From positions 19,927 through 83,926 of the forward strand of contig CAZJNI010000004.1 of the NCBI GenBank assembly GCA_964547465.1: DNA of 64,000 nt. Reading direction: 5' to 3'. Below the pieces are notes generated by a model, which had not been told where the DNA came from, did no database searches, and saw only the letters and a program-made list of their open reading frames with translations. How positions within the stretch are numbered: position 1 is the first letter of the stretch; each line of letters starts with the position of its first letter. A program made the position numbers and the translations under genes. This document shows positions 2,736 through 55,715 of the stretch, piece after piece. This DNA comes from an uncultured Gammaproteobacteria bacterium. GTDB taxonomy: Bacteria; Patescibacteriota; Microgenomatia; Daviesbacterales; UBA10151.

Positions 2736-5700
2736 ATGTCTTTACAACTTGTTGATAATAAAACTATACGTAAATCATGGAATAAAGCACCCACTTTAAC
2801 CCCACAGCTAAACTTAATAAAAATTCAACTTGATTCATATAATTGGTTTCTAACAGAAGGTATAAGAGAAGTTTTGGATGAGATTTCCCCGGTTGAGGAT
2901 TTCACCGGCAAAAATTGGTCTTTGGAACTTGGAGGTTTTTCATTTGGTAAACCCAAATATACTCCGGATTTGGCAAAAGAAAAGGGCGTCACATATGACG
3001 CTCCTTTAAAAATTGAGGCTATTTTAGTTAATAAACAAACTGGCGATAGGGGTAAGCAAGAAGTTTTCTTAGGTGATATTCCCCAGATGACCGAGAAAGG
3101 AACCTTCATTATAAATGGGGTAGAAAGAGTCATTATTAATCAATTGGTCCGCTCTCCCGGAGTATTCTTTTCTGCAACTGATGATCCAATTACCGGAAGA
3201 AGGCTTTATTCAGCAGAGGTTAGACCATATAGAGGTTCCTGGTTGGAATTTTCAATTTCCCGAACCGGTGTTTTAACTGCCAAAATAGACAGAAGAAGAA
3301 AATTTGCGGCTACAACCTTACTTCGAGCTTTAGGCTTTTCAGATTCGGAGTCAATAATGCAGCTATTTAGTGATGTGGATACAACTGAAGATAAATATAT
3401 TGAAACAACTTTGAGTAAAGATCCAACCATAAACTCTGATGAAGCTCTTTTGGAAATTTTTAGAAAAATGCGTCCAGGTGATCCGGTTGTTTTGGATAAT
3501 GCCAAAGCTTTACTTGAAGGAATGTTTTTTAACTCCAGACGTTACAATTTAACAAAAGTTGGCAGGTTTAAAATTAACAAAAGACTGGGATTGGATATTG
3601 CAAATACTTTAGAGAATTGGATTTTGACCAATAATGATATTATTGCCACTTTAAAATATTTAATTAAATTAGCAAATGGTGAAGGAAAAGTGGATGATAT
3701 TGACCATTTAGCAAACAGAAGAGTCAGGTGTGCCGGGGAACTGGTACAGCAAAACGCCTTTAGGATCGGAGTTTTGAGACTTGAGAGAATTATTAAAGAG
3801 CGAATGAGCTTAACAACAGCTGATCAAGAACCCACCCCAGGTGGGTTAATTAATGCCAAACCGGTGATTGCTGCTATTAATGAATTTTTCCGCTCATCTC
3901 AACTATCCAGCATTTTGGATCAGGTAAATCCGCTATCTGAATTAGATCATTTAAGAAGATTATCTGTGATGGGTGCAGGTGGGATAACCCGTGATAGGGC
4001 CAGCTTTTCTGTCCGTGATATTAACCATTCTCAATACGGCAGGATTGATCCTATCCGTTCTCCTGAAGGACAAAATATTGGTTTGGTAACCTATTTAGCC
4101 CTTTATGCCAGAATTAATGAGTACGGATTTTTGGAAACTCCATATAGAAGGGTCGTTTTAGAGCGGGGTAAGCCCAGAATGACTGATGATGTAGTGTATA
4201 TTACAGCTGATGATGAAGAAGATTATCATATAACGGAGGCAACAGTTAACACCGATACAAAAGGTAATATTTTAGACGATCGGGTTCCCATCAGATATCA
4301 GGGAAATTTTTTTGAAGGGGAATCTAAACAGGTCTCTTTGATTGATATCTCACCTCAACAAATCTTTGGAACCTCAGCCGCTTTAATTCCATTTTTAGCA
4401 AATGATGATGCAAACAGGGCTTTAATGGGAACTCAAATGCAGTGCCAGGCAGTGCCTCTTCTTAACCCTTCTGCTCCAATTGTTGGAACCGGGATGGAGC
4501 GAATTGTGGCGGATAATATGGGAAGAGTTGTTAGAGCACCTGAAGATGGGGTGATAGTGGCTGTTGATGGTAAAAAACTTATTCTTGAAGGTAGGAAGGA
4601 TGAGTATAAATATGAGATAAAAAAATTTATCCACTCACCTCAAGGAACTTGTTATTCTCAAAAACCGGCTGTAAAGTTAGGACAAAAGATTAAAAAGGGT
4701 GATCTGTTAGTTGATGGTGCAGCTACCCAAAATGGTGAGTTGGCTTTGGGACAAAATCTTCTGATTGCTTACATGAGTTTTGAAGGATTAGGCTATGAAG
4801 ATGCTATTGTAATTTCAGATAGATTGGTTAGGCAGGATCTTTTAACTTCAATCCATATTGAGGAATATGAGGTTGATGTGGTGGAAACAAAGCTTGGACC
4901 GGAAGAACTAACCCGGGATATTCCAAACGTATCTGAAGATGCATTGAGAAACTTAGATGAGCGGGGAATTGTCAGTATTGGTGCTGAAGTTTTGCCAAAT
5001 GATATTTTGGTTGGCAAAGTTCAGCCTAAAGGTGAGACAGAGTTGACTGCCGAAGAAAGGCTGCTTCGTGCAATTTTTGGAGAAAAAGCCAAAGAAGTAA
5101 GAGACACTTCCTTGAGAGTTCCTCATGGAGAAAGAGGTACTGTAATTGGAGTTCAAATTTTATCCAGGGAAGAGGAAGATGAGCTGGATACAGGAACATT
5201 AATGAGAATTAAGGTTAAAGTTGCCCAAATGAGAAAAGTAACTGAAGGAGATAAGCTGGCAGGAAGGCATGGAAATAAAGGGGTTATCTCTCGAATCGTC
5301 CCGGTATCTGACATGCCGCATTTAGAAGATGGAACACCGGTTGATATTATTATTTCTCCCTTGTCTGTTTTATCCCGTATGAATTTAGGACAACTTCTGG
5401 AAACTCATTGGGGTTTTGCTGCAGAAAAATTGGGTTATAAAATTGCCGCCCCGGTTTTTGAGAAAATGCCGGAGGAAATGTTAATTGCCGAGCTTAAAAA
5501 GGCAGGTTTGCCTACTGATGGAAAAGTCAGACTGATCGATGGGAGAACCGGTCAGGCTTTTGATAACACTATTGTGGTTGGTAGAAATTACATCTTAAAA
5601 CTGATCCATATGGTGGAGGAGAAAATTCATGCCCGCTCCACCGGACCATATTCTTTAGTAACTCAACAGCCTTTGGGCGGAAAAGCACAAATGGGAGGAC

Positions 5701-16292: not shown

Positions 16293-16366
16293 GTCATTGC
16301 GAGCCCGAAGGGCGTGGCAATCTTATTAATAAGATCCTCACGTCGCTTCGCTCCTCAGGATGACAA
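16293..16366. repeat. Palindromic MITE-like element copy A (GTCATTGCGAG...CTCAGGATGAC)
   Basis: Shares termini and central GTGGCAATCTTATT/AATAAGAT core with 6 other copies. Confidence 0.8.
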
Positions 16367-16723: not shown

Positions 16724-17287
16724 ATGGTAGAAAAGGGTCCACAGGTTACATGGAAAGAATATAATGAATGGTATCGGGCTACTCGTGATCAAAGGATTGA
16801 AGGGGAGCTAGCATATGGACAATGGCCTGAAGGAACACCACAAATCTTCATTGATTTAGAAAAGAGAATACCTTCTGAAGAAAGGTCAGATTGGCATCTC
16901 TTAGAGCTTTTTGCTGGACGACATCCGCGTAAGTGGAAATTTACAAGACCATCAATTGAAGAAATTTTAGCCAGACCTGCTGATTATGCAGCTATAAAAG
17001 AAGAAGAATCTAGAAAAAGAATAGAGGCAAGGGGAGGAAAATTATTAAAAGAGCAAGTGGAAGAGGTTTTGGATACTTTGACTGATAGAGAAAACAGAGT
17101 AATGAGGTTAAGATTTGGTTTAGAGGATGGTCGCTCTAGAACCTTAAAAGAGGCTGGTATTGAGTTTGGAATGGAAGTTAGAGGACAGGCCTATTCTGGG
17201 GAAAGAATTCGTCAAATAGAGGCTAAAGCTTTGCGGAAACTTAGACGTCCTTCAATAGTACAACCCCTTCAAGACTATTTAGCATAG
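16724..17287 (+). CDS. Sigma-70 region 4 (HTH) domain protein without region 2
   Basis: C-terminus [25 protein letters not shown]...[17 protein letters not shown] nearly identical to RpoD region 4.2; N-terminal ~110 aa unrelated to sigma regions 1-3. Confidence 0.6.
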
Positions 17288-17378: not shown

Positions 17379-17460
17379 GTCATTGCGAAGCCACGAAGTG
17401 GCTGTGGCAATCTTATTTCAATAAGATTCCCACGACTTACTTCGTAAGTCTCGGGATGAC
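17379..17460. repeat. Palindromic MITE-like element copy B
   Basis: GTCATTGCGAAGCCACGAAGTGGCTGTGGCAATCTTATT...AATAAGATTCCCACGACTTACTTCGTAAGTCTCGGGATGAC. Confidence 0.8.
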
Positions 17461-17746
17461 TAGTTAATATTTTTGTATAGATCCTTGAGGCTTGGATTAA
17501 ATTTACTAATTAATTTTTCTTTTGCTGCTCTATTCCAACTTTTAATCTGTTTTTCTCGCTCAATCGCAGTTTCTGGGTCATAATAAACTTCATAAAATAG
17601 AAGTTCATGAACCTGATATTTTTGGGTGAATCCTTTTACCAGATTATTTTTATGTTGCCAAACTCTTCTTAATAAGTTATTTGTGATTCCTGTGTATAAC
17701 ACTGTTCTAGTGAAGTTACTTAGGATATAGACATAATATTGTTTCA
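17460..17746 (-). CDS. GIY-YIG nuclease family protein (small, UPF0213-like)
   Basis: YYVYILSN...LYTGITNNLLRRVWQH GIY-YIG motif; ORF track extends to 17852 through a MITE copy, true start likely MKQYYVY. Confidence 0.6.
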
Positions 17747-17764
17747 TAAGATTATTATAGATAG

Positions 17765-17840
17765 GATCGCCACGCTTCGCTCGCGATGACGAGATAATAA
17801 GATTCCCACGGTCCGCCTTTGGCGGACCTCGGAATGACAA
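17765..17840. repeat. MITE-like element copy C (rearranged/right-half-rich)
   Basis: CTCGCGATGAC then AATAAGATTCCCACGGTCCGCCTTTGGCGGACCTCGGAATGAC. Confidence 0.7.
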
Positions 17841-17872: not shown

Positions 17873-18112
17873 TCATTCAGCCAGATATCCTTTTATTTCT
17901 TCAACTCTTTGCTGAAAGTTTAAAATATCTTCAGGCCAAAGTAGAAATGAATTTCTCCTTCTTTCTCCGTTTTCTCCAACAAAAGCTGATTCTGTTATTT
18001 TTAGATATCTTTTATTATTGGAAGCAACGTAGCAATCAAAGAAGAAAGTTCTTTTACCGCACTTTAACGTAGAAGATTGAACTGGTTTCCTGATCTCTTT
18101 CTGTTTGTCCAT
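17873..18112 (-). CDS. PUR-alpha-like nucleic-acid-binding protein (DUF3276-like)
   Basis: KRTFFFD...NNKRYLKITE resembles PUR repeat/DUF3276 signature; 79 aa. Confidence 0.4.
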   Translation of the reverse strand: MDKQKEIRKPVQSSTLKCGKRTFFFDCYVASNNKRYLKITESAFVGENGERRRNSFLLWPEDILNFQQRVEEIKGYLAE

Positions 18113-18403: not shown

Positions 18404-19210
18404 ATGATAAGTACATTACTCGGTATAAAAAAGAATATGACCAGCACTTATGATTCTCGTGGCAGAAGAGTCGGGGCAACTGTGGTTGAAATTCAGCCAA
18501 ATTTAGTTACCCAAATAAAGACTAAAGAGGGAAAAGACGGCTACGGGGGGATACAGCTCGGGTTTGGAACAAAAAGGTCTGTTAAAAAACCCCAACTCGG
18601 ACTTGGAAAAAAAATAGGGGTAGATCAACCAATCCGCTGGTTTAGGGAAGTTAAAATTGAAGGAGATCCCTCGACTTCGCTCGGGACTATTCAGCCTGGA
18701 CAAGCAATTACACTTGACCAGGTTTTTTCAATAGGAGACGCAATAAAAGTTCAGGGGACTTCCAAAGGTAAGGGTTTTCAAGGCGGAGTCAGAAGACATG
18801 GCTTCCATGGCGGATCAAGAACCCATGGTCAGTCAGATAGAATGAGAGCCCCAGGAGCGATTGGTTCCGGAACAACTCCGGGAAGAGTTTATAAAGGTAA
18901 AAAAATGGCAGGACATATGGGTAATATTTCTGTTAGCACTAAAAATTTGGAAGTTGTAGGACTGGATAAAGAGAAGAATTTATTGGTTATTAAAGGTGCA
19001 GTTCCCGGAGCAACAGGGGGACTTGTAACATTAACAAAACTTGGTCGGGTTAAAGGTTATACTCCTCCGCCGGAAGAAAAGCCGGATGAAGAAGGTGAAG
19101 GGGAAAGCGTAAAGGGTGAAGAAAAGATAGAAGGTCCACAAGAAACAGTAGCACAGCAACCAGCTGAAGAAGTAAAAACTGAGGAGGTAAAGACAGATGC
19201 CAAGAGTTAA
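18404..19210 (+). CDS. rplC: 50S ribosomal protein L3 with ~55 aa acidic/Lys C-terminal extension
   Basis: MISTLLGIKKNMTS... aligns to L3 N-terminus; ORF opens earlier at 18356 in leader; tail PPPEEKPDEEGEGES...EEVKTEEVKTDAKS. Confidence 0.9.
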   Translation: MISTLLGIKKNMTSTYDSRGRRVGATVVEIQPNLVTQIKTKEGKDGYGGIQLGFGTKRSVKKPQLGLGKKIGVDQPIRWFREVKIEGDPSTSLGTIQPGQAITLDQVFSIGDAIKVQGTSKGKGFQGGVRRHGFHGGSRTHGQSDRMRAPGAIGSGTTPGRVYKGKKMAGHMGNISVSTKNLEVVGLDKEKNLLVIKGAVPGATGGLVTLTKLGRVKGYTPPPEEKPDEEGEGESVKGEEKIEGPQETVAQQPAEEVKTEEVKTDAKS

Positions 19211-20006
19211 AAAAAATTCAAATACTACGTCATTGCGAGCCCGCGAAGCGAGGCGTGGCAATCTCATTAAAAAGATTGCTTTGTCGTCAAAGACTCCTCG
19301 CAATGACAGGAGGATTTCTACCCGAGTCAGTTTATCTGTACCAGTGTGTTCATTAGCAGGTAGAGCTGCTGGAAATTTATCACTCCCTAAAGAATTTTTT
19401 GGAGCAGAGGTTAACAAAAAACTTTTAGCTCAAGCGCTAAGAGTTTATACAACTAATCAAAAAAGTTTAACCGGTAATACTAAAACCCGAGGTGAGGTTG
19501 AAGGGTCAACTGCCAAAATTTACAGACAAAAAGGGACAGGTCGGGCCAGGCATGGTGCAATCAGGGCTCCAATATTTGTTGGAGGAGGAATTACTTTTGG
19601 TCCTAAGGAGAGGAAAGTAAGATTAGATCTCCCCCAAAAAATGAAAAAATCTGCGCTAAAGTCTGCGCTGTCCTCTAAAGTAATAGATAAATCTGTAATG
19701 GGATTGTCTGGAATCGAGAAAGCATCAGGTAAGACAAAAGAAATAGCGAAATTAATGTATCAAGTATCAAGTATCAGGTATCAAGGGAAAGATAAAAAAT
19801 CTAAGAAGATTACCAGTACATTAATTGTAACAGGAGATAAGGTAGATAATATACTTCGTGGAGCTAGAAATATTCCAGGGGTTGATATTTTAACAGTTAA
19901 TTTAATTAATGCTTATGAGGTAGCAAGACATGATTTGCTACTTATTACCAAAGAAGCTGTAGATGTTTTAAGCGGAAAGGGTAAAGCGGAAAGGGTAAAG
20001 TTATGA
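19197..20006 (+). CDS. rplD: 50S ribosomal protein L4 (true start possibly in-frame GTG ~19344 downstream of MITE copy)
   Basis: QKGTGRARHGAIRAPIFVGGGITFGP L4 core; first ~50 codons of ORF are encoded by the MITE copy. Confidence 0.85.
   Translation: MPRVKKNSNTTSLRAREARRGNLIKKIALSSKTPRNDRRISTRVSLSVPVCSLAGRAAGNLSLPKEFFGAEVNKKLLAQALRVYTTNQKSLTGNTKTRGEVEGSTAKIYRQKGTGRARHGAIRAPIFVGGGITFGPKERKVRLDLPQKMKKSALKSALSSKVIDKSVMGLSGIEKASGKTKEIAKLMYQVSSIRYQGKDKKSKKITSTLIVTGDKVDNILRGARNIPGVDILTVNLINAYEVARHDLLLITKEAVDVLSGKGKAERVKL
19229..19307. repeat. MITE-like element copy D (inside annotated 5' end of rplD ORF)
   Basis: GTCATTGCGAGCCCGCGAAGCGAGGCGTGGCAATCTCATT...CTCCTCGCAATGAC. Confidence 0.8.
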
Positions 20007-22966: not shown

Positions 22967-23314
22967 ATGAAAAAACAAGAATTTGTACAAATTAAAGGAT
23001 TAGATATTAAAGAGTTAAAAGCCAAGGTAGTAGCGCTAAAGGATGAAATTGCCAAACTGACAATGGAAAAAAATAGAAAGATATTAAAAGATCTAAAAAG
23101 TATCTTTAAGAAAAGAAAAGATTTAGCTCAAGTTCTAACTGTTTTAAAACAGAAAGAATTATTGGGACAGTTAGAGTCAAGAGTCAAGAATCAAGAGTCA
23201 AGTGAAGAAGTAAAAAGTCAAAATAATACACCCTCCACTAAAGTGGGGCCAAAAGTTAAAGGTATAAGTAAAAAGGAAAAAGTAAAAAAAGGAAAGGAGA
23301 AATCTAGTCCCTAG
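22967..23314 (+). CDS. rpmC: 50S ribosomal protein L29 with 46 aa C-terminal extension identical to the S17 tail
   Basis: L29 core first ~65 aa; extension encoded by 163 bp direct repeat. Confidence 0.8.
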   Translation: MKKQEFVQIKGLDIKELKAKVVALKDEIAKLTMEKNRKILKDLKSIFKKRKDLAQVLTVLKQKELLGQLESRVKNQESSEEVKSQNNTPSTKVGPKVKGISKKEKVKKGKEKSSP

Positions 23315-23335
23315 ACTCTAGTAACTAGTCACTAA
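23173..23335. repeat. 163 bp perfect direct repeat, copy 1 (3' end of rpmC + junction)
   Basis: Identical to 23648-23810. Confidence 0.9.
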
Positions 23336-23338
23336 CTT

Positions 23339-23779
23339 ATGATAGGTCGTGTTACATCAACAAAAATGCAAAAAACAGCGGTTGTTTTAATAGAAAGAAT
23401 AGCAATGCATCCTTTGTATAAAAAAACTTATAAAAGATCTAAAAAGTATTTAGTGGATGATCCAATAGGAGTTAAAGACGGGGATTTGGTGGAGATTATA
23501 AAAGTTAGCCCTATATCTAGAAATAAACATTGGAGGATTATTAAAGTTGTAGGTAAGAATCTGGCCGAGATTGCGGAAGAGAAGCTAAAGGCTCAAGCTG
23601 AAAAGGTGATTTCAGAAGTAATGCCGGAAGAGAAAGTAGAGTCAAGAGTCAAGAATCAAGAGTCAAGTGAAGAAGTAAAAAGTCAAAATAATACACCCTC
23701 CACTAAAGTGGGGCCAAAAGTTAAAGGTATAAGTAAAAAGGAAAAAGTAAAAAAAGGAAAGGAGAAATCTAGTCCCTAG
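23339..23779 (+). CDS. rpsQ: 30S ribosomal protein S17 with long C-terminal extension
   Basis: S17 core (TKMQKTAVV...HWRIIKVV) then extension whose last 46 aa equal the L29 tail. Confidence 0.85.
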   Translation: MIGRVTSTKMQKTAVVLIERIAMHPLYKKTYKRSKKYLVDDPIGVKDGDLVEIIKVSPISRNKHWRIIKVVGKNLAEIAEEKLKAQAEKVISEVMPEEKVESRVKNQESSEEVKSQNNTPSTKVGPKVKGISKKEKVKKGKEKSSP

Positions 23780-23810
23780 ACTCTAGTAACTAGTCACTAA
23801 TTATATGGTT
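23648..23810. repeat. 163 bp perfect direct repeat, copy 2 (3' end of rpsQ + junction)
   Basis: Identical to 23173-23335. Confidence 0.9.
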
Positions 23811-24508: not shown

Positions 24509-24514
24509 AATAAG

Positions 24515-24563
24515 CGGACGATCTGAAGGAGATCCTTCGTCGCTAATTGCTCCTCGGGATGAC
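24515..24563. repeat. MITE-like element, right-half copy E
   Basis: ...CCTTCGTCGCTAATTGCTCCTCGGGATGAC. Confidence 0.6.
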
Positions 24564-42286: not shown

Positions 42287-42357
42287 CGGGGAGTAGTATA
42301 GTGGTAACACGCCGCGCTGGGGGTGCGGCATCGGGAGTCCGATTCTCCCCTCCCCGA
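42287..42357 (+). tRNA. tRNA-Pro (anticodon GGG), atypical T-loop TCCGATT
   Basis: Hand-folded cloverleaf: acceptor CGGGGAG/CTCCCCG, D-arm AGTGGTA loop, anticodon stem CCGCG/TGCGG loop CTGGGGG, T-stem GGGAG/CTCCC, discriminator A. Confidence 0.55.
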
Positions 42358-42443
42358 CACAACATGCTATGTATCCATACGTAAGTACGCTAAATAATTT
42401 TGGGGTATTGACACCTTTGGGATATATTTGGTAATTTAAATTT

Positions 42444-43511: not shown

Positions 43512-44002
43512 TGGATTCCCTGGCATTTAAATTACTTCTGAATAAACTCTACAGACTTATCTCTATCAGAGCTAGATCGGAAAAAGAAATCAGAGATTAT
43601 TTAAGGGTAAAGGGTAAAGGGTTAAGGGGAAAGAAAATAGAGATAAATGATAAGATGATTGAGTATCTAATAGATACCCTAAAGCAGCAAAATCTTATTA
43701 ATGATTTAGGGTTTGCTAAAGCTTGGGTGGAATCAAGGAGCAGGAAAAAAGGGATGAGAGTTATCCGGCAGGAGTTATTTCAAAAAGGAATTGACAGGGA
43801 AATTGTGTCAAGTATCATGGGTCAAGTGTCAAGTATAGAAGAACAGAAAACAGCAGAAAAATTGCTTGAAAAAAAATTAAGAGTTTGGAAAAATTTACCC
43901 AATTTAGAATTTAAGAAAAAGGCATATGATTTCTTACTAAGAAGAGGATTTGAATATGGAATAGTGAAAGATGCCATTGAAAATATTATAAAAAAGATGT
44001 AA
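43511..44002 (+). CDS. recX: Regulatory protein RecX
   Basis: Helical repeat protein directly downstream of recA, RecX-like 163 aa. Confidence 0.65.
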   Translation: MDSLAFKLLLNKLYRLISIRARSEKEIRDYLRVKGKGLRGKKIEINDKMIEYLIDTLKQQNLINDLGFAKAWVESRSRKKGMRVIRQELFQKGIDREIVSSIMGQVSSIEEQKTAEKLLEKKLRVWKNLPNLEFKKKAYDFLLRRGFEYGIVKDAIENIIKKM

Positions 44003-44115: not shown

Positions 44116-44200
44116 GTCATTCCGAGCGAATGAAGTTCGCGTGGGAATCTTGATTAATAGGGATTGCCACGTCGCTCGAGGACTCGCTCCTTGCAATGAC
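44116..44200. repeat. MITE-like element copy F (immediately upstream of rny)
   Basis: GTCATTCCGAGCGAATGAAGTTCGCGTGGGAATCTTGATT...CTCGCTCCTTGCAATGAC. Confidence 0.8.
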
Positions 44201-53456: not shown

Positions 53457-54432
53457 TTCAACAGGGAAAACAGACTTGGCATTAACTTTGGCTAAAAAAT
53501 TTAATGGGGAGTTAGTATCGTGTGATTCCAGACAAGTATATGTGGGACTTGATATAGGGACCGGGAAGATGCCTGGAGTAGATTTAAGATTTAAGAATAA
53601 GGATTTAAGAATAAAAAAGGGAAATAATTGGTGGGAAATAGGTGGAATAAAAATCTGGATGTATGATGTAATATCCCCAAAAAGGCAGTATACAGTTTTT
53701 GATTATGTAAAAGATGCAAATAAGGCAATAGATAAGATTATAAAAAAAGGAAAGCAACCTATTATAGTTGGGGGAACTGGTTTGTATCTGAAGGGGTTGC
53801 TATATGGTTTTCCTAATTTAGGAATTCCGGTAGATAAAAAGTTAAGAAATAACTTAGAAGAGTTAACTTTAGAAGAACTTCAAAAAAACCTTCAAGGATT
53901 TTCTATTCAAAGATGGGAAAAGATGAATAGTTCAGATAGGCAAAATCCCAGAAGATTAGTTAGGGCGATAGAGCTAACTATTTCGTCATTGCGAGGAGCA
54001 AGGCGACGAAGCAATCCATTAAACATATTGCCACGGCCCTTCGGGCCTCGCAATGACATATTAAAAATTGGATTAACTACCTCAAGGGAGATTTTATACA
54101 AAAGAATTGATGAAAGAGTAGTATCTAGAATAAATGAAGGAATGATTGATGAGGCAATAAGACTATATAAAGATGGATTAAGTCTGAAAAGAATGAGACA
54201 GTTAGGGCTTGAGTATGGAGTAATGGCGGATTTTCTGGAAATCAAAATAAGCAGAGATCAATTAATTGAAACTCTGAAGGTAAAAATTCATCACTTTGCC
54301 AAACGTCAAGAAACATGGTTTAAAAAAGAAAAAGATATTAATTGGTTTGATATAGCTAAAAAAAATTATATAAATAAAGTGGAAAATTTGGTGGCTAAAT
54401 GGTATTATCAGGCAAATGCCACGCAAGATTGA
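53425..54432 (+). CDS. miaA: tRNA dimethylallyltransferase with in-frame MITE-derived insertion
   Basis: P-loop GPTSTGKTDLAL, DSRQVY motif; 335 aa. Confidence 0.85.
   Translation: MNKVLVILGPTSTGKTDLALTLAKKFNGELVSCDSRQVYVGLDIGTGKMPGVDLRFKNKDLRIKKGNNWWEIGGIKIWMYDVISPKRQYTVFDYVKDANKAIDKIIKKGKQPIIVGGTGLYLKGLLYGFPNLGIPVDKKLRNNLEELTLEELQKNLQGFSIQRWEKMNSSDRQNPRRLVRAIELTISSLRGARRRSNPLNILPRPFGPRNDILKIGLTTSREILYKRIDERVVSRINEGMIDEAIRLYKDGLSLKRMRQLGLEYGVMADFLEIKISRDQLIETLKVKIHHFAKRQETWFKKEKDINWFDIAKKNYINKVENLVAKWYYQANATQD
53985..54057. repeat. MITE-like element copy G located in-frame inside miaA
   Basis: GTCATTGCGAGGAGCAAGGCGACGAAGCAATCCATT...GCCACGGCCCTTCGGGCCTCGCAATGAC. Confidence 0.8.
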
Positions 54433-55384: not shown

Positions 55385-55391
55385 ATTTTTT

Positions 55392-55715
55392 GCCTAGGAA
55401 GAGGGTAAGCCAGATTCTGTTTCAAGATGATCATTTATCTAGACTGTGATTTTTAATGTCACATCTTCCGCCAGTCGGCGGATGCTCCTTATTTAAACTA
55501 TTAAGCGAGCAGCTTAGTTTTTTCTAGGATTGCAGCGGGGAGGATTGCCACGTTTCACCCGAGCTTGACCCCGGTTCGTCACTGTTGCTCTATACTCTGT
55601 CTTACGACCGTCCGACTTACGCCGGACACCCTGCTCTATGCTGTCTGGACTTTCCTCCCGTTCAAATTTCTTTTAGAAATTTGCGCGGGCGATCATCCTT
55701 CTTCCTAGGCCGATA
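55392..55715 (-). ncRNA. rnpB: RNase P RNA (bacterial type A-like, compact)
   Basis: Minus strand contains GGAGGAAAGTCCAGAC...CATAGAGCAGGGTG (CR-I/P4), GGGTGAAACGTGG (CR-II-like), AACAGAATCTGGCTTA (CR-V/P4 3' strand); P1 GGCCTAGGAAGAAGG/CCTCTTCCTAGGC; upstream TTGAAT-17-TAAAAT promoter at 55722-55751 on minus strand. Confidence 0.75.

Follow-up and report, generated by a model that had tools for sequence, protein, structure and literature searches.

What is the short palindromic sequence that recurs at seven sites in the 64,000-nt stretch of DNA analysed here (the window), does it work as DNA or as RNA, and which protein serves it? The initial annotation described a novel, lineage-specific and MITE-like family. 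We consider it probable that the repeats are DNA-level hairpins, a two-tier variant of the CGTC-tagged REPs and Ssn-related motifs (SRM), and that their cognate protein is most likely a 95-aa GIY-YIG nuclease encoded among them. The system is a structural variant of one first described in 2025, not a new class. What is new here is a two-tier hairpin that lies outside the published SRM pattern; a hypervariable inner hairpin; a host from the CPR; and pairs inserted in frame in rplD and miaA.

All seven sites exist, by motif counts and by covariance model, but the repeating unit is not the ~80-nt palindrome first proposed. It is a hairpin of 26-39 nt, half the described element. Thirteen such units occupy the seven sites of the window as five inverted pairs (16293-16364, where an end at 16366 had been given; 17379-17460; 19229-19307; 44116-44200; and 53985-54057), one direct pair and one single unit, with 9-12 nt between paired units. 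Of the other two sites, 17765-17838 (c3) is a direct tandem with both units on the minus strand, not a palindrome, and 24531-24563 is a single unit (u9), for which a truncated partner may be present at 24513-24530.

Run over the window, a covariance model derived from the units themselves (R1) recovers 13 units, each at 38.9 bits or more, with the next best match at 8.6 bits. Simple motif counts agree: GTCATTGCGAG occurs 10 times with at most one mismatch (0.34 expected), and GTGGCAATCTTATT seven times with at most two (0.82 expected). A whole-window repeat finder returned only the inverted pair of copy 7 (I23) and one arm match between copies (I17); it did not group the copies because their variable inner hairpins disrupt ungapped alignment. 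A literal literature search for GTCATTGCGAG found unrelated primer sequences only.

Each unit has the form YGTC-AT-NNN-GAG-[variable inner hairpin]-CGTG-NNN-AT-C. At the 5' end is an unpaired (C/T)GTC tag (CGTC in four units, TGTC in eight, AGTC in one); GTCAT is invariant in all 13, and a C follows the stem directly in 12. In 315 shell matches elsewhere, among the matches listed, GTC is preceded by T in 66% of cases and by C in 27%. The outer stem has 5 bp, of which the first two are A-T and then T-A in 13/13 window units, and in 146 and 147, respectively, of 147 units from other genomes. A conserved 3x4-nt internal loop, GAG/CGTG, separates the two tiers. The inner hairpin, which spans 6-19 nt in window units and 8-29 nt elsewhere, has a stem of 2-8 bp and a loop of mostly 3 nt, the GAA triloop being the commonest closure in the window. 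No two of the window's 13 inner hairpins are alike, which gives no sign of a recent copy-and-paste burst; this counts against the explanation that we favour.

Covariation shows where pairing is selected. Pairing in the outer helix reaches 98% among the window units, three of its five pairs vary on both sides, and its score was reached by none of 500 shuffles. All five modelled pairs of the inner stem also vary on both sides, which bears out the claim that the variable inner stem-loops keep pairing. A wider set, drawn from 100 species loci, comprises 147 distinct units. Pairing in their outer helix is complete (100%), with double changes in 209 cells and wobble in about 11; nearly all stem changes exchange one Watson-Crick pair for another, and wobble pairs make up ~1%. 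The termini and the central stem had been taken as separate parts, but the pairing partner of the conserved terminus, ATTGC, is the central GCAAT of its own unit. Where the two units of a pair differ, as in copy 1 (ATTGC/GCAAT versus ATCCT/AGGAT) and copy 6 (ATTCC/GGAAT versus ATTGC/GCAAT), pairing within the unit is kept and pairing end to end is lost. This supports selection for pairing within each unit rather than across the ends of an 80-nt element; the conserved structure is the single hairpin, in place of the cruciform or multi-stem fold previously suggested.

The loops have a DNA character. Triloops make up 62% of inner-hairpin loops, and 32% are C-GNA-G. GNA triloops are exceptionally stable DNA mini-hairpin loops, for example in d(GCGAAGC). 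In four of the five inverted pairs, one unit has a perfect stem and the other is of the GGAGC..GCGAC class. In c1, in the tuf-rpsJ spacer, the left half u1 (16293-16322, plus strand; R1 46.6 bits; DNA fold z -2.25) has a perfect CCC-GAA-GGG inner stem; the right half u2 (16333-16364, minus strand; 47.8 bits), with outer stem ATCCT/AGGAT, is of the GGAGC..GCGAC class and shows both tandem G.A and a mini-hairpin, GCGAAGC. With nearest-neighbour DNA parameters, five units of this class fold no better than shuffled sequence (z ~0).

The initial annotation overlooked the GIY-YIG gene that lies between copies 2 and 3. This gene (17460-17747, minus strand), the only one of its kind in the window, encodes a 95-aa single-domain protein (MKQYYVYIL...) that matches PF01541 over residues 3-76 (E=1.1e-16) and contains no other domain. 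The NCBI annotation gives 130 aa because the open reading frame reads through copy 3, which adds 35 codons. Homologues are mostly 95-98 aa long and are named GIY-YIG nuclease family protein. The match to the UPF0213 structure 1ZG2 is weak (E=0.005), NCBIfam models gave no match to the 95-aa protein, and an exact-sequence look-up of the 130-aa frame and of S10 gave none either. Residues Y7, Y18, and E65 occupy the positions of catalytic Y6, Y17, and E64 in Neisseria meningitidis SsnA (offset +1), and are conserved in eight homologues from the CPR, Bacillota, and Bacteroidota; the two tyrosines are those of the GIY and YIG motifs, and the glutamate binds metal in that enzyme.

Repeat units flank this gene on both sides, ending at its stop codon and resuming 18 nt upstream of its ATG. 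The resulting cassette (17379-17838, minus strand, delimited by R1 units and open reading frames) runs from GTCAT..ATC units through ssn to an inverted unit (GAT..ATGAC), so that the gene is bracketed by inverted-orientation units, insertion-sequence-like. Outermost downstream, on the strand opposite the gene, is u3 (17379-17412, plus; 47.6 bits; z -3.70). Next, u4 (17425-17460, minus; 41.0 bits; z -3.88) abuts ssn so closely that the G of the TAG stop codon doubles as the G of the GTCAT tag. Upstream, both on the gene strand, are u6 (17765-17790, minus; 39.2 bits), the shortest unit, whose inner part is GCGAAGC alone, and the outermost u5 (17801-17838, minus; 45.3 bits; z -4.65); together these form the direct tandem c3. 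The cassette lies within a 1.65-kb island between rpsJ and rplC; the corresponding gap in a relative (L247) is 215 nt.

This layout matches that of the Ssn family, site-specific nucleases that cut single-stranded DNA only (Chenal 2025, Nat Commun; PMC11893778). Ssn nucleases bind NTS/SRM hairpins (CGTCATTCCCGCGMAVGCGGGAATCYRG) as single-stranded DNA only, and cut upstream; the base that matters most for binding is the C after the palindrome, whereas cutting depends most on the 3 nt ahead of it (PMC11893778). The likenesses are several: a GIY-YIG protein of small size and one domain (95 aa, against 94 aa in N. meningitidis), with catalytic Tyr/Tyr/Glu at equivalent positions; bracketing of the gene by repeats, described there as NTS-ssnA-NTS; oriented (C/T)GTC-AT...AT-C flanks, with GTC before the palindrome and C right after; and many orphan copies per genome, distributed widely across phyla (PMC11893778). 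That paper defines family members by CDD domain cd10448 (GIY-YIG_unchar_3) or a BLAST E value below 1e-10 to N. meningitidis SsnA, with a length under 150 aa and hairpin repeats within 500 bp on both sides. By its length, domain, catalytic positions and flanking layout, the 95-aa protein is a putative Ssn-like enzyme.

The differences lie mostly in the repeat. NTS has a continuous stem of 8-9 bp, whereas the window hairpin is two-tier, with a 5-bp outer stem and the GAG/CGTG internal loop. The published SRM pattern, HGTCWYN(0-2)YYVSBRHN(0-5)WNVSBRGN(0-2)RNCYNB (PMC11893778), matches none of the 13 units, nor anything else in the whole window; the inner part of the units is too long and its composition different. 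Intragenic copies account for two of the seven window sites, versus 2% in N. meningitidis, and the host, Candidatus Daviesbacteria, belongs to the CPR, a group not mentioned for Ssn (PMC11893778). Giving the Neisseria enzyme a new stem sequence while keeping the hairpin abolished its activity (PMC11893778); that the window nuclease tolerates a variable inner hairpin is our assumption.

Does the pairing of gene and repeat extend beyond this locus? Among the matches listed, only 3 of 240 loci chosen by motif contain the nuclease gene (1 of 120 viral, 2 of 120 genome). Most copies are therefore orphans, and a route that starts from the motif is unfit to measure association. The measurement was instead made from the protein side, with 80 metagenomic homologues at 50-74% identity. 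An R1-type unit lies within 150 nt of the gene in 34 of these 80 loci, and on both sides in 26. The other 46 have no R1-type unit beside the gene; other motif variants may be present there. Placement is strongly oriented: upstream units are on the gene strand in 26 cases and opposite in 5, and downstream units are on the opposite strand in 30 and on the gene strand in 4. Moreover, 65 of the 85 R1 matches fall within the 16% of sequence adjoining the gene. The unit-ssn-unit layout also occurs in independent loci (L241, L243, L244/245, L140 from Oscillospiraceae, L075, and L212 from Lacinutrix). A protein search of viral contigs found only distant GIY-YIG genes of large phages (30-39% identity), which were not used.

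The family is not confined to one lineage, as had been supposed. The exact shell GTCATTGCGAG..GTGGCAATC is present in at least 120 stretches of a species-genome collection and at least 120 of a viral collection (IMG/VR); among the matches listed, hosts include Proteobacteria, Bacillota, Bacteroidota, Chloroflexota, Planctomycetota, CPR, and others. Because the published pattern misses this widespread two-tier variant, Ssn-related motifs are probably undercounted at present. Related genomes differ in the sites occupied: copies 1 and 4 are missing from relatives L246 and L247, while a pair lies between rpsS and rplV in L246, a site left empty in the window. The cassette likewise occupies different operons, rpsJ-rplC in the window and dnaK-dnaJ in L241. 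Such differences are signs of mobility. Together with the inverted orientation, they provide evidence for deciding between mobile Ssn cassettes and domesticated systems that restrict single-stranded DNA.

The initial annotation was right to see a dispersed small palindromic repeat family of the REP type, but not in calling it novel: the repeats fit both the SRM (PMC11893778) and the CGTC-tagged REP superfamily (Di Nocera 2013, PMC3733652). The superfamily comprises families CGTC-1 to CGTC-4, among them dRS3 of Neisseria and RPE-4 and RPE-6 of Rickettsia; its units carry an unpaired CGTC tag, with TGTC or CCTC allowed, and A-T pairs at the first two stem positions; they form inverted dimers, many of them heterodimers; and in-frame intragenic dimers encode 20-30 aa. 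The repeats here share the CGTC/TGTC tag, the A-T/T-A first stem pairs, a short tail beginning with C, the predominance of inverted (hetero)dimers, the preference for the 3' ends of genes, and in-frame dimers (inserts of 26 aa in rplD and 24 aa in miaA). They differ in the two-tier stem with mostly 3-nt loops, where CGTC-1 to CGTC-4 have a stem of 8-9 bp and a loop of 4-5 nt, and in a spacer of 9-12 nt, where most CGTC dimers have 20-100 nt (PMC3733652). They differ also in having an adjacent Ssn-like gene; the 2013 description found neither a transposase nor another associated enzyme, and no RAYT flanked by CGTC REPs (PMC3733652). From that description until the 2025 Ssn work, CGTC-tagged REPs had no known enzyme partner.

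Could the hairpins act as RNA instead? RNA-level roles have often been suggested for REPs, and the initial annotation proposed terminators, mRNA-stability modules or small RNAs. Such hairpins would fold as RNA too; copies 1 and 5 lie just past the tuf and rplX stop codons, and copy 6 is in the rny 5' leader. CGTC REPs cluster less than 20 bp from the 3' ends of open reading frames and may be transcribed (PMC3733652). We nevertheless judge action as terminators, 3' mRNA stabilisers or small RNAs unlikely. No T-run follows copies 1, 4 or 5; terminator-like matches in the window (9, versus 6.7 +/- 3.0 expected) are at chance level, and the only ones at a copy are inside copy 2. At the gathering threshold, Rfam matches only RNase P and tRNA in the window, and the best permissive match on a unit, a miRNA model, scores 22.6 bits against a gathering score of 90. 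Stem changes are Watson-Crick swaps with ~1% G-U, so that both DNA strands stay palindromic, unlike in typical RNA families; the loops are GNA triloops of the DNA type, not GNRA or UUCG; and units occur on both strands relative to transcription, some of them inside coding sequence. The Ssn enzyme that has been characterised shows no RNA binding (PMC11893778), and an RNA role would not explain why the units lie so close to a DNA nuclease gene and in so regular an orientation.

There are also three DNA-level alternatives. A classical MITE is an insertion sequence that has lost internal sequence but keeps its terminal inverted repeats, and a DDE transposase moves it in trans; such elements would account for dispersed pairs of ~72-85 nt with inverted ends (GTCATTGCGAG / CTCGCAATGAC), sometimes within genes. 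This origin is scarcely credible, however: none of the five pairs is flanked by a target-site duplication, the flanks sharing no duplicated bases; the unit is one hairpin, found singly and as a direct tandem as well as in inverted pairs; covariation reflects selection on pairing within the unit, not on terminal repeats; and no transposase gene, DDE or other, adjoins any copy, the only gene bracketed by units being the GIY-YIG nuclease. Alternatively, most copies might be passive sites for host factors or recombination (phage or transposon attachment, nucleoid-protein binding), to which the nuclease is irrelevant. The dRS3/NTS repeats are known targets of a phage recombinase in Neisseria (PMC11893778), and many IMG/VR contigs contain the shell. 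None of the seven window sites, however, adjoins an integrase or a prophage boundary, and although orphans predominate, an unsystematic look at the 240 listed loci noticed no other recurrent neighbour; we give this reading very little weight.

REP and REPIN elements reportedly depend on RAYT transposases, in accounts credited to Nunvar (2010) and to Bertels and Rainey (2011). The window repeats resemble them in their hairpin units, inverted doublets, short spacer, and single-copy enzyme gene flanked by its own repeats; both also lack target-site duplications and involve recognition of hairpins in single-stranded DNA, which for the window nuclease is argued by analogy. The repeats might then be ordinary REPINs served by an IS200/IS605-type RAYT encoded elsewhere, with the GIY-YIG gene an unrelated neighbour; the evidence on RAYT is limited to the window. 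We regard this as highly improbable. The tag is (C/T)GTC where REP/RAYT systems have GTAG, and the flanked gene is GIY-YIG, not HUH/Y1; the published absence of RAYT genes flanked by CGTC REPs (PMC3733652) points the same way. Furthermore, the GIY-YIG association is repeated, under a strict orientation rule, in dozens of independent loci.

We return, then, to DNA hairpins with a probable cognate GIY-YIG nuclease, and infer by analogy that the 95-aa protein binds and nicks single-stranded DNA and has a role in spreading the units. Like characterised Ssn enzymes, it would bind the folded hairpin only in single-stranded DNA, as exposed in replication, DNA uptake or repair. Only the strand reading GTCAT...ATC would be recognised, and the nick would fall 5' of the tag, a few nucleotides away. 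On this view, the dispersed pairs and lone units are orphan sites for recognition, and it was probably the cassette that spread them, as RAYT transposases spread REPINs. The combination of conserved shell and variable core hints at which parts of its substrate the nuclease reads, and may prove useful for Ssn-based single-stranded DNA tools.

A bolder proposal, which we hold only tentatively, treats the unit-ssn-unit cassette as an autonomous transposon: driven by the GIY-YIG nuclease, it would move through single-stranded DNA hairpins, and the dispersed inverted pairs would be its non-autonomous, REPIN-like offspring. To our knowledge, transposition by Ssn has never been shown. In such a transposon, the nuclease would read the conserved shell and leave the inner hairpin free, so that copies could diversify yet stay recognisable; diversification might proceed by within-strand template switching, which would keep the arms perfectly complementary. 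That would explain how one shell comes to be present across most bacterial phyla and within essential CPR genes. If true, a GIY-YIG transposon would be the mechanistic counterpart, on a different enzyme fold, of IS200/IS605 and REP/RAYT.

The remaining copies lie in or next to genes, as first noted; the tuf, rplX, rny, rplD, and miaA contexts were each checked. Copy 1 begins 8 nt past the tuf stop codon, and u9 (24531-24563, minus; 38.9 bits), in copy 5, comes after that of rplX. Copy 6 is in the recX-rny intergenic spacer (3/3 frames checked): u10 (44116-44149, plus; 46.5 bits), the left half, has the outer stem ATTCC/GGAAT, and u11 (44162-44200, minus; 40.4 bits), the right half, ends 11 nt before the rny ATG. 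Within genes, only copies in frame and without a stop codon would survive, which would account for the extra codons of two genes: 26 for L4, in its N-terminal tail, and 24 for MiaA, in its linker. Copies do extend reading frames, as the initial annotation held; the 130-aa GIY-YIG frame is a third case. Copy 4 lies in frame at rplD codons 11-36, as u7 (19229-19263, plus; 41.6 bits), its left half, and u8 (19274-19307, minus; 41.6 bits), its right. Copy 7 lies in frame in miaA, as u12 (53985-54016, plus; 43.2 bits), on the left, and u13 (54026-54057, minus; 44.2 bits; z -3.25).

In-frame palindromes are known from Rickettsia, where they occur in protein-coding genes (Ogata et al. 2000, as cited in PMC3733652). 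As there, the palindromes here are in essential genes, and the peptides are at tolerant surface or linker positions. Most RPE families are ~100-150 nt long and restricted to Rickettsia, whereas here the host is a CPR bacterium, with 24-26 aa added to its L4 N-terminal tail and MiaA linker. Because CPR genomes are very small, it is striking that in-frame copies are tolerated in rplD and miaA, where selfish DNA shapes essential proteins. Alignment of MiaA with PDB entries suggests that the insert replaced the native linker rather than adding to it; across 120 orthologues this linker is hypervariable and often repeat-derived, so the insertion boundaries are not exactly definable. For L4, the closest orthologue (P0242, 80% identity) is without the 26 rplD codons.

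The repeats of the window are real and, judged from their sequence, are a structural variant of the CGTC-tagged REP and Ssn-related motif (SRM) hairpins, accompanied by a putative Ssn-type nuclease gene. With at most one mismatch, GTCATTGCGAG has 10 occurrences in the window where 0.34 would be expected; with at most two, GTGGCAATCTTATT has 7 where 0.82 would be. Each site was read, giving a unit of 26-39 nt with the form YGTC-AT-NNN-GAG-(variable hairpin)-CGTG-NNN-AT-C. The seven sites of the initial annotation stand, but its ~80-nt element does not: the true repeat is about half as long. Thirteen units were extracted and aligned (alignment A1), and a covariance model built on A1 (R1) was run over the window without filters. 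This check bore out the copies, regaining exactly these 13, with scores of 38.9-47.8 bits; the match ranked next reached 8.6 bits. R1 and site reading together resolve five inverted pairs (copy 1, 16293-16364; copy 2, 17379-17460; copy 4, 19229-19307; copy 6, 44116-44200; copy 7, 53985-54057), two units in direct tandem (copy 3, 17765-17838, minus strand), and a single unit (copy 5, 24531-24563).

The two termini of the 80-nt element had been proposed to pair with each other, with a further stem at its centre. Double-sided changes within single units contradict this: ATTGC pairs with GCAAT inside one unit, and the outer-stem variants ATTCC/GGAAT, ATCCT/AGGAT, and ATCGC/GCGAT alter both sides within the unit, even where the partner unit retains ATTGC/GCAAT. 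The outer helix is 98% paired in A1, with double-sided change in 3 of 5 pairs. The variable inner stems do keep pairing, as had been claimed, with double-sided change in all 5 modelled inner pairs. None of 500 shuffles reached the observed A1 covariation, and shifting the 3' partner by 1-3 columns lowered pairing from 89.6% to 27-55%. The pattern extends to other species: at 100 of their loci, 147 distinct units show 100% pairing of the outer helix, 209 double-change cells, and only ~11 wobble cells. The helix figure is biased upwards, because these units were aligned by fitting to the model and their loci picked by the commonest shell, the conserved outer sequence of the unit.

A conserved tandem G.A (GGAGC...GCGAC) is present in about 45% of these 147 units, and four of the five window inverted pairs join one G.A-class unit to one perfect-stem unit. 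DNA folding against shuffled sequence gave z scores of -1.8 to -4.7 for perfect-stem units and ~0 for the G.A class, the latter being expected because nearest-neighbour parameters credit tandem G.A little. Inside the constant shell, inner hairpins are extremely diverse: no two of the window's 13 are identical, and 315 shell matches contain 238 distinct inner sequences. A perfect hairpin is possible in 307 of the 315; of these, 62% have triloops and 32% have C-GNA-G loops, which are exceptionally stable DNA mini-hairpin loops, as in d(GCGAAGC).

The neighbourhood described in the initial annotation was incomplete, missing a GIY-YIG gene between copies 2 and 3. Read from an internal ATG (17747), this minus-strand ORF (putative ssn, 17460-17747) yields a single-domain GIY-YIG protein of 95 aa (PF01541, E=1.1e-16); the NCBI annotation is 130 aa long, as the reading frame continues back through copy 3. 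Most homologues have 95-98 aa. Residues Tyr7, Tyr18, and Glu65 occupy the positions of catalytic Tyr6, Tyr17, and Glu64 of the Neisseria enzyme, and the gene is the single one of its type within the 64-kb window. The order on the gene strand is unit, unit, gene, unit, inverted unit, so the outermost GTCAT tags point outwards, as insertion-sequence ends do. The G of the ssn stop codon, TAG, is also the G of the adjoining unit's GTCAT tag.

This association recurs elsewhere. R1-type units abut the gene in 6 of 6 independent homologue loci (47-74% identity), drawn from CPR metagenomes, an Oscillospiraceae MAG, the cultured flavobacterium Lacinutrix venerupis, and one viral contig. In a second sample, of 80 metagenomic loci with homologues at 50-74% identity, a unit lies within 150 nt of the gene in 34 and on both sides in 26; the other 46 have no R1-type unit beside the gene. 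Orientation in this sample is strongly skewed: upstream of the gene, 26 units are on its strand and 5 on the opposite one; downstream, 30 are on the opposite strand and 4 on that of the gene. Moreover, 65 of 85 R1 matches fall within the gene-adjacent 16% of sequence. Loci selected by motif contain the gene in only 3 of 240 cases, as would be expected if each nuclease gene is accompanied by many orphan units. On one CPR contig (L241), two GIY-YIG genes (1030-1371 and 5001-5297) bracket the hrcA-grpE-dnaK operon; R1-type units occur only at the gene between dnaK and dnaJ, and the other gene's partner may be a different motif.

Two described systems frame these observations. Di Nocera et al. defined a superfamily of CGTC-tagged REPs whose tag (CGTC or TGTC) is unpaired, whose first two stem positions are A-T, and whose tail is short; members include Neisseria dRS3 and Rickettsia RPE-4 and RPE-6 (PMC3733652). 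Most form inverted dimers, many of them heterodimers, and some in-frame intragenic dimers encode 20-30 aa; as those authors stressed, no dedicated enzyme was known (PMC3733652). Chenal et al. characterised SsnA, a 94-aa single-domain GIY-YIG protein (CDD cd10448) that binds the NTS hairpin CGTCATTCCCGCGMAVGCGGGAATCYRG, acting on single-stranded DNA only, on one strand only, and nicking a few nucleotides upstream (PMC11893778). The C just 3' of the palindrome is the most important base for binding, and the three bases 5' of it matter most for cutting; ssn genes are typically motif-flanked (NTS-ssnA-NTS), a likeness to insertion sequences and REP/RAYT that the authors note (PMC11893778). Like NTS, the window units have an invariant GTC, A-T then T-A first in the stem, and C after the stem (12 of 13). 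However, none of the 13 matches the published degenerate SRM pattern, and where CGTC-1 to CGTC-4 have stems of 8-9 bp and loops of 4-5 nt, they have a 5-bp outer stem, an internal loop, and a variable inner hairpin. The hairpins are no new class, although they were initially called novel (PMC3733652, PMC11893778). Their value lies in a pan-bacterial two-tier variant that escapes the published search pattern; the strictly inverted arrangement of units on either side of ssn; cassette and pair insertions into conserved operons; and in-frame copies within essential genes of a CPR bacterium.

ALTERNATIVES

A role in RNA, as terminator, mRNA stabiliser, or small RNA, had also been suggested for the units, and is probably not their function. 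No T-run follows them, terminator-like matches in the window are at chance level, and there is no Rfam match; stem changes are nearly all from one Watson-Crick pair to another, and the loops are of DNA type. The characterised Ssn enzyme, too, ignores RNA (PMC11893778). A secondary effect on transcripts is possible at copies 1 and 5. The defining features of a classical MITE fail: none of the five inverted pairs has the target-site duplications that a "MITE-like" label implied, and the bracketed gene is GIY-YIG. Those of a RAYT-served REPIN fail likewise, given the tag (C/T)GTC and, again, the GIY-YIG gene.

Distribution shows the family to be widespread. The exact shell GTCATTGCGAG-N(8-30)-GTGGCAATC occurs in at least 120 stretches in IMG/VR and at least 120 in a one-genome-per-species collection. 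Hosts among the matches listed include Alpha-, Gamma-, and Deltaproteobacteria, Neisseriaceae, Rickettsiales, Oscillospiraceae and other Bacillota, Bacteroidota, Chloroflexota, Planctomycetota, Thermodesulfovibrionales, Melainabacteria, Leptospirales, Elusimicrobia, and many CPR lineages. This breadth overturns the description of the family as lineage-specific. The window's own closest MiaA, L4, and GIY-YIG homologues bear source names that place it in a Candidatus Daviesbacteria genome. Unlike the inverted pairs of the window, units on some IMG/VR contigs form head-to-tail arrays of 3 to at least 9 copies, spaced ~40-55 nt (L005, 11380-11522; L019, 2668-2859 and 12664-12784).

Comparison with relatives suggests mobility. 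The rpsJ-rplC junction is normally tight (215 nt in relative L247), but in the window it holds a 1.65-kb island comprising a 187-aa ORF with sigma-70 region 4 only (16724-17287), the ssn cassette, and a DUF3276 ORF (17873-18112, minus strand). Relative L246 has a 71-aa ORF at this junction, and a 23S_rRNA_IVP gene between tuf and rpsJ. Copies 1 and 4 are absent from both relatives; conversely, in L246 a pair with no counterpart in the window separates rpsS from rplV, and the L241 cassette lies between dnaK and dnaJ.

Two inverted pairs lie within genes. One such pair makes up codons 11-36 of rplD and measures 78 nt between TCA and GAC, both included; the gene's start codon, at 19197, overlaps the rplC end and follows a good Shine-Dalgarno sequence. 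The 26 codons are cleanly absent from the closest orthologue listed (P0242, 80% identity), and an SLR...PRND peptide of like origin occurs in the N-terminal tail of 20 of 120 Daviesbacteria L4 orthologues. The miaA pair (72 nt) lies between RAIE and ILKIGL, in a linker that is hypervariable (~14-60 aa) among 120 orthologues, 4 with both-end and 32 with one-end unit signatures. Both window inserts use one common reading frame (S-L-R ... P-R-N-D). TCA-to-GAC length is divisible by 3 nt in four of the five inverted pairs (81, 78, 84, and 72 for copies 2, 4, 6, and 7; 71 for copy 1), two of them intergenic; the binomial p is ~0.045, and either chance or selection during passage through coding sequence could account for it.

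Daviesbacteria MiaA linkers (P0121-P0240, aligned to window 53950-54070) also contain the recurring peptides IPAYAGMT, ISPRRSPYGHLRG, TDFTSEESLRA, and DINTTAVGLMST, whose likely origin is in several other families of repeats; the first of them, IPAYAGMT, is the canonical NTS-type hairpin read on its other strand. This suggests that the linker is a hotspot where different small palindromic elements gather in frame.

Rfam and tRNA searches of the window yield just two genes, RNase P RNA class A (55390-55708, minus strand; bacterial, 123 bits) and tRNA-Pro(GGG) (42287-42358, plus strand). An exact 164-nt duplication (23172-23335 and 23637-23800) gives L29 (22967-23314) and S17 (23339-23779) identical 46-aa C-terminal tails (ESRVKNQESSEEVKSQNNTPSTKVGPKVKGISKKEKVKKGKEKSSP); both proteins are shorter in L246 (90 and 129 aa), and the duplication could be real and recent or a MAG assembly artefact. 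Finally, a loose purine-rich repeat, ..GATGTTTTAAG-(GGTAAAG/CGGAAAG)n.., occurs at 19950-20000 (rplD 3' end), 43583-43633 (inside recX), and 1173-1223; its copies are 61-75% identical to the reference and encode K/G-rich peptides.
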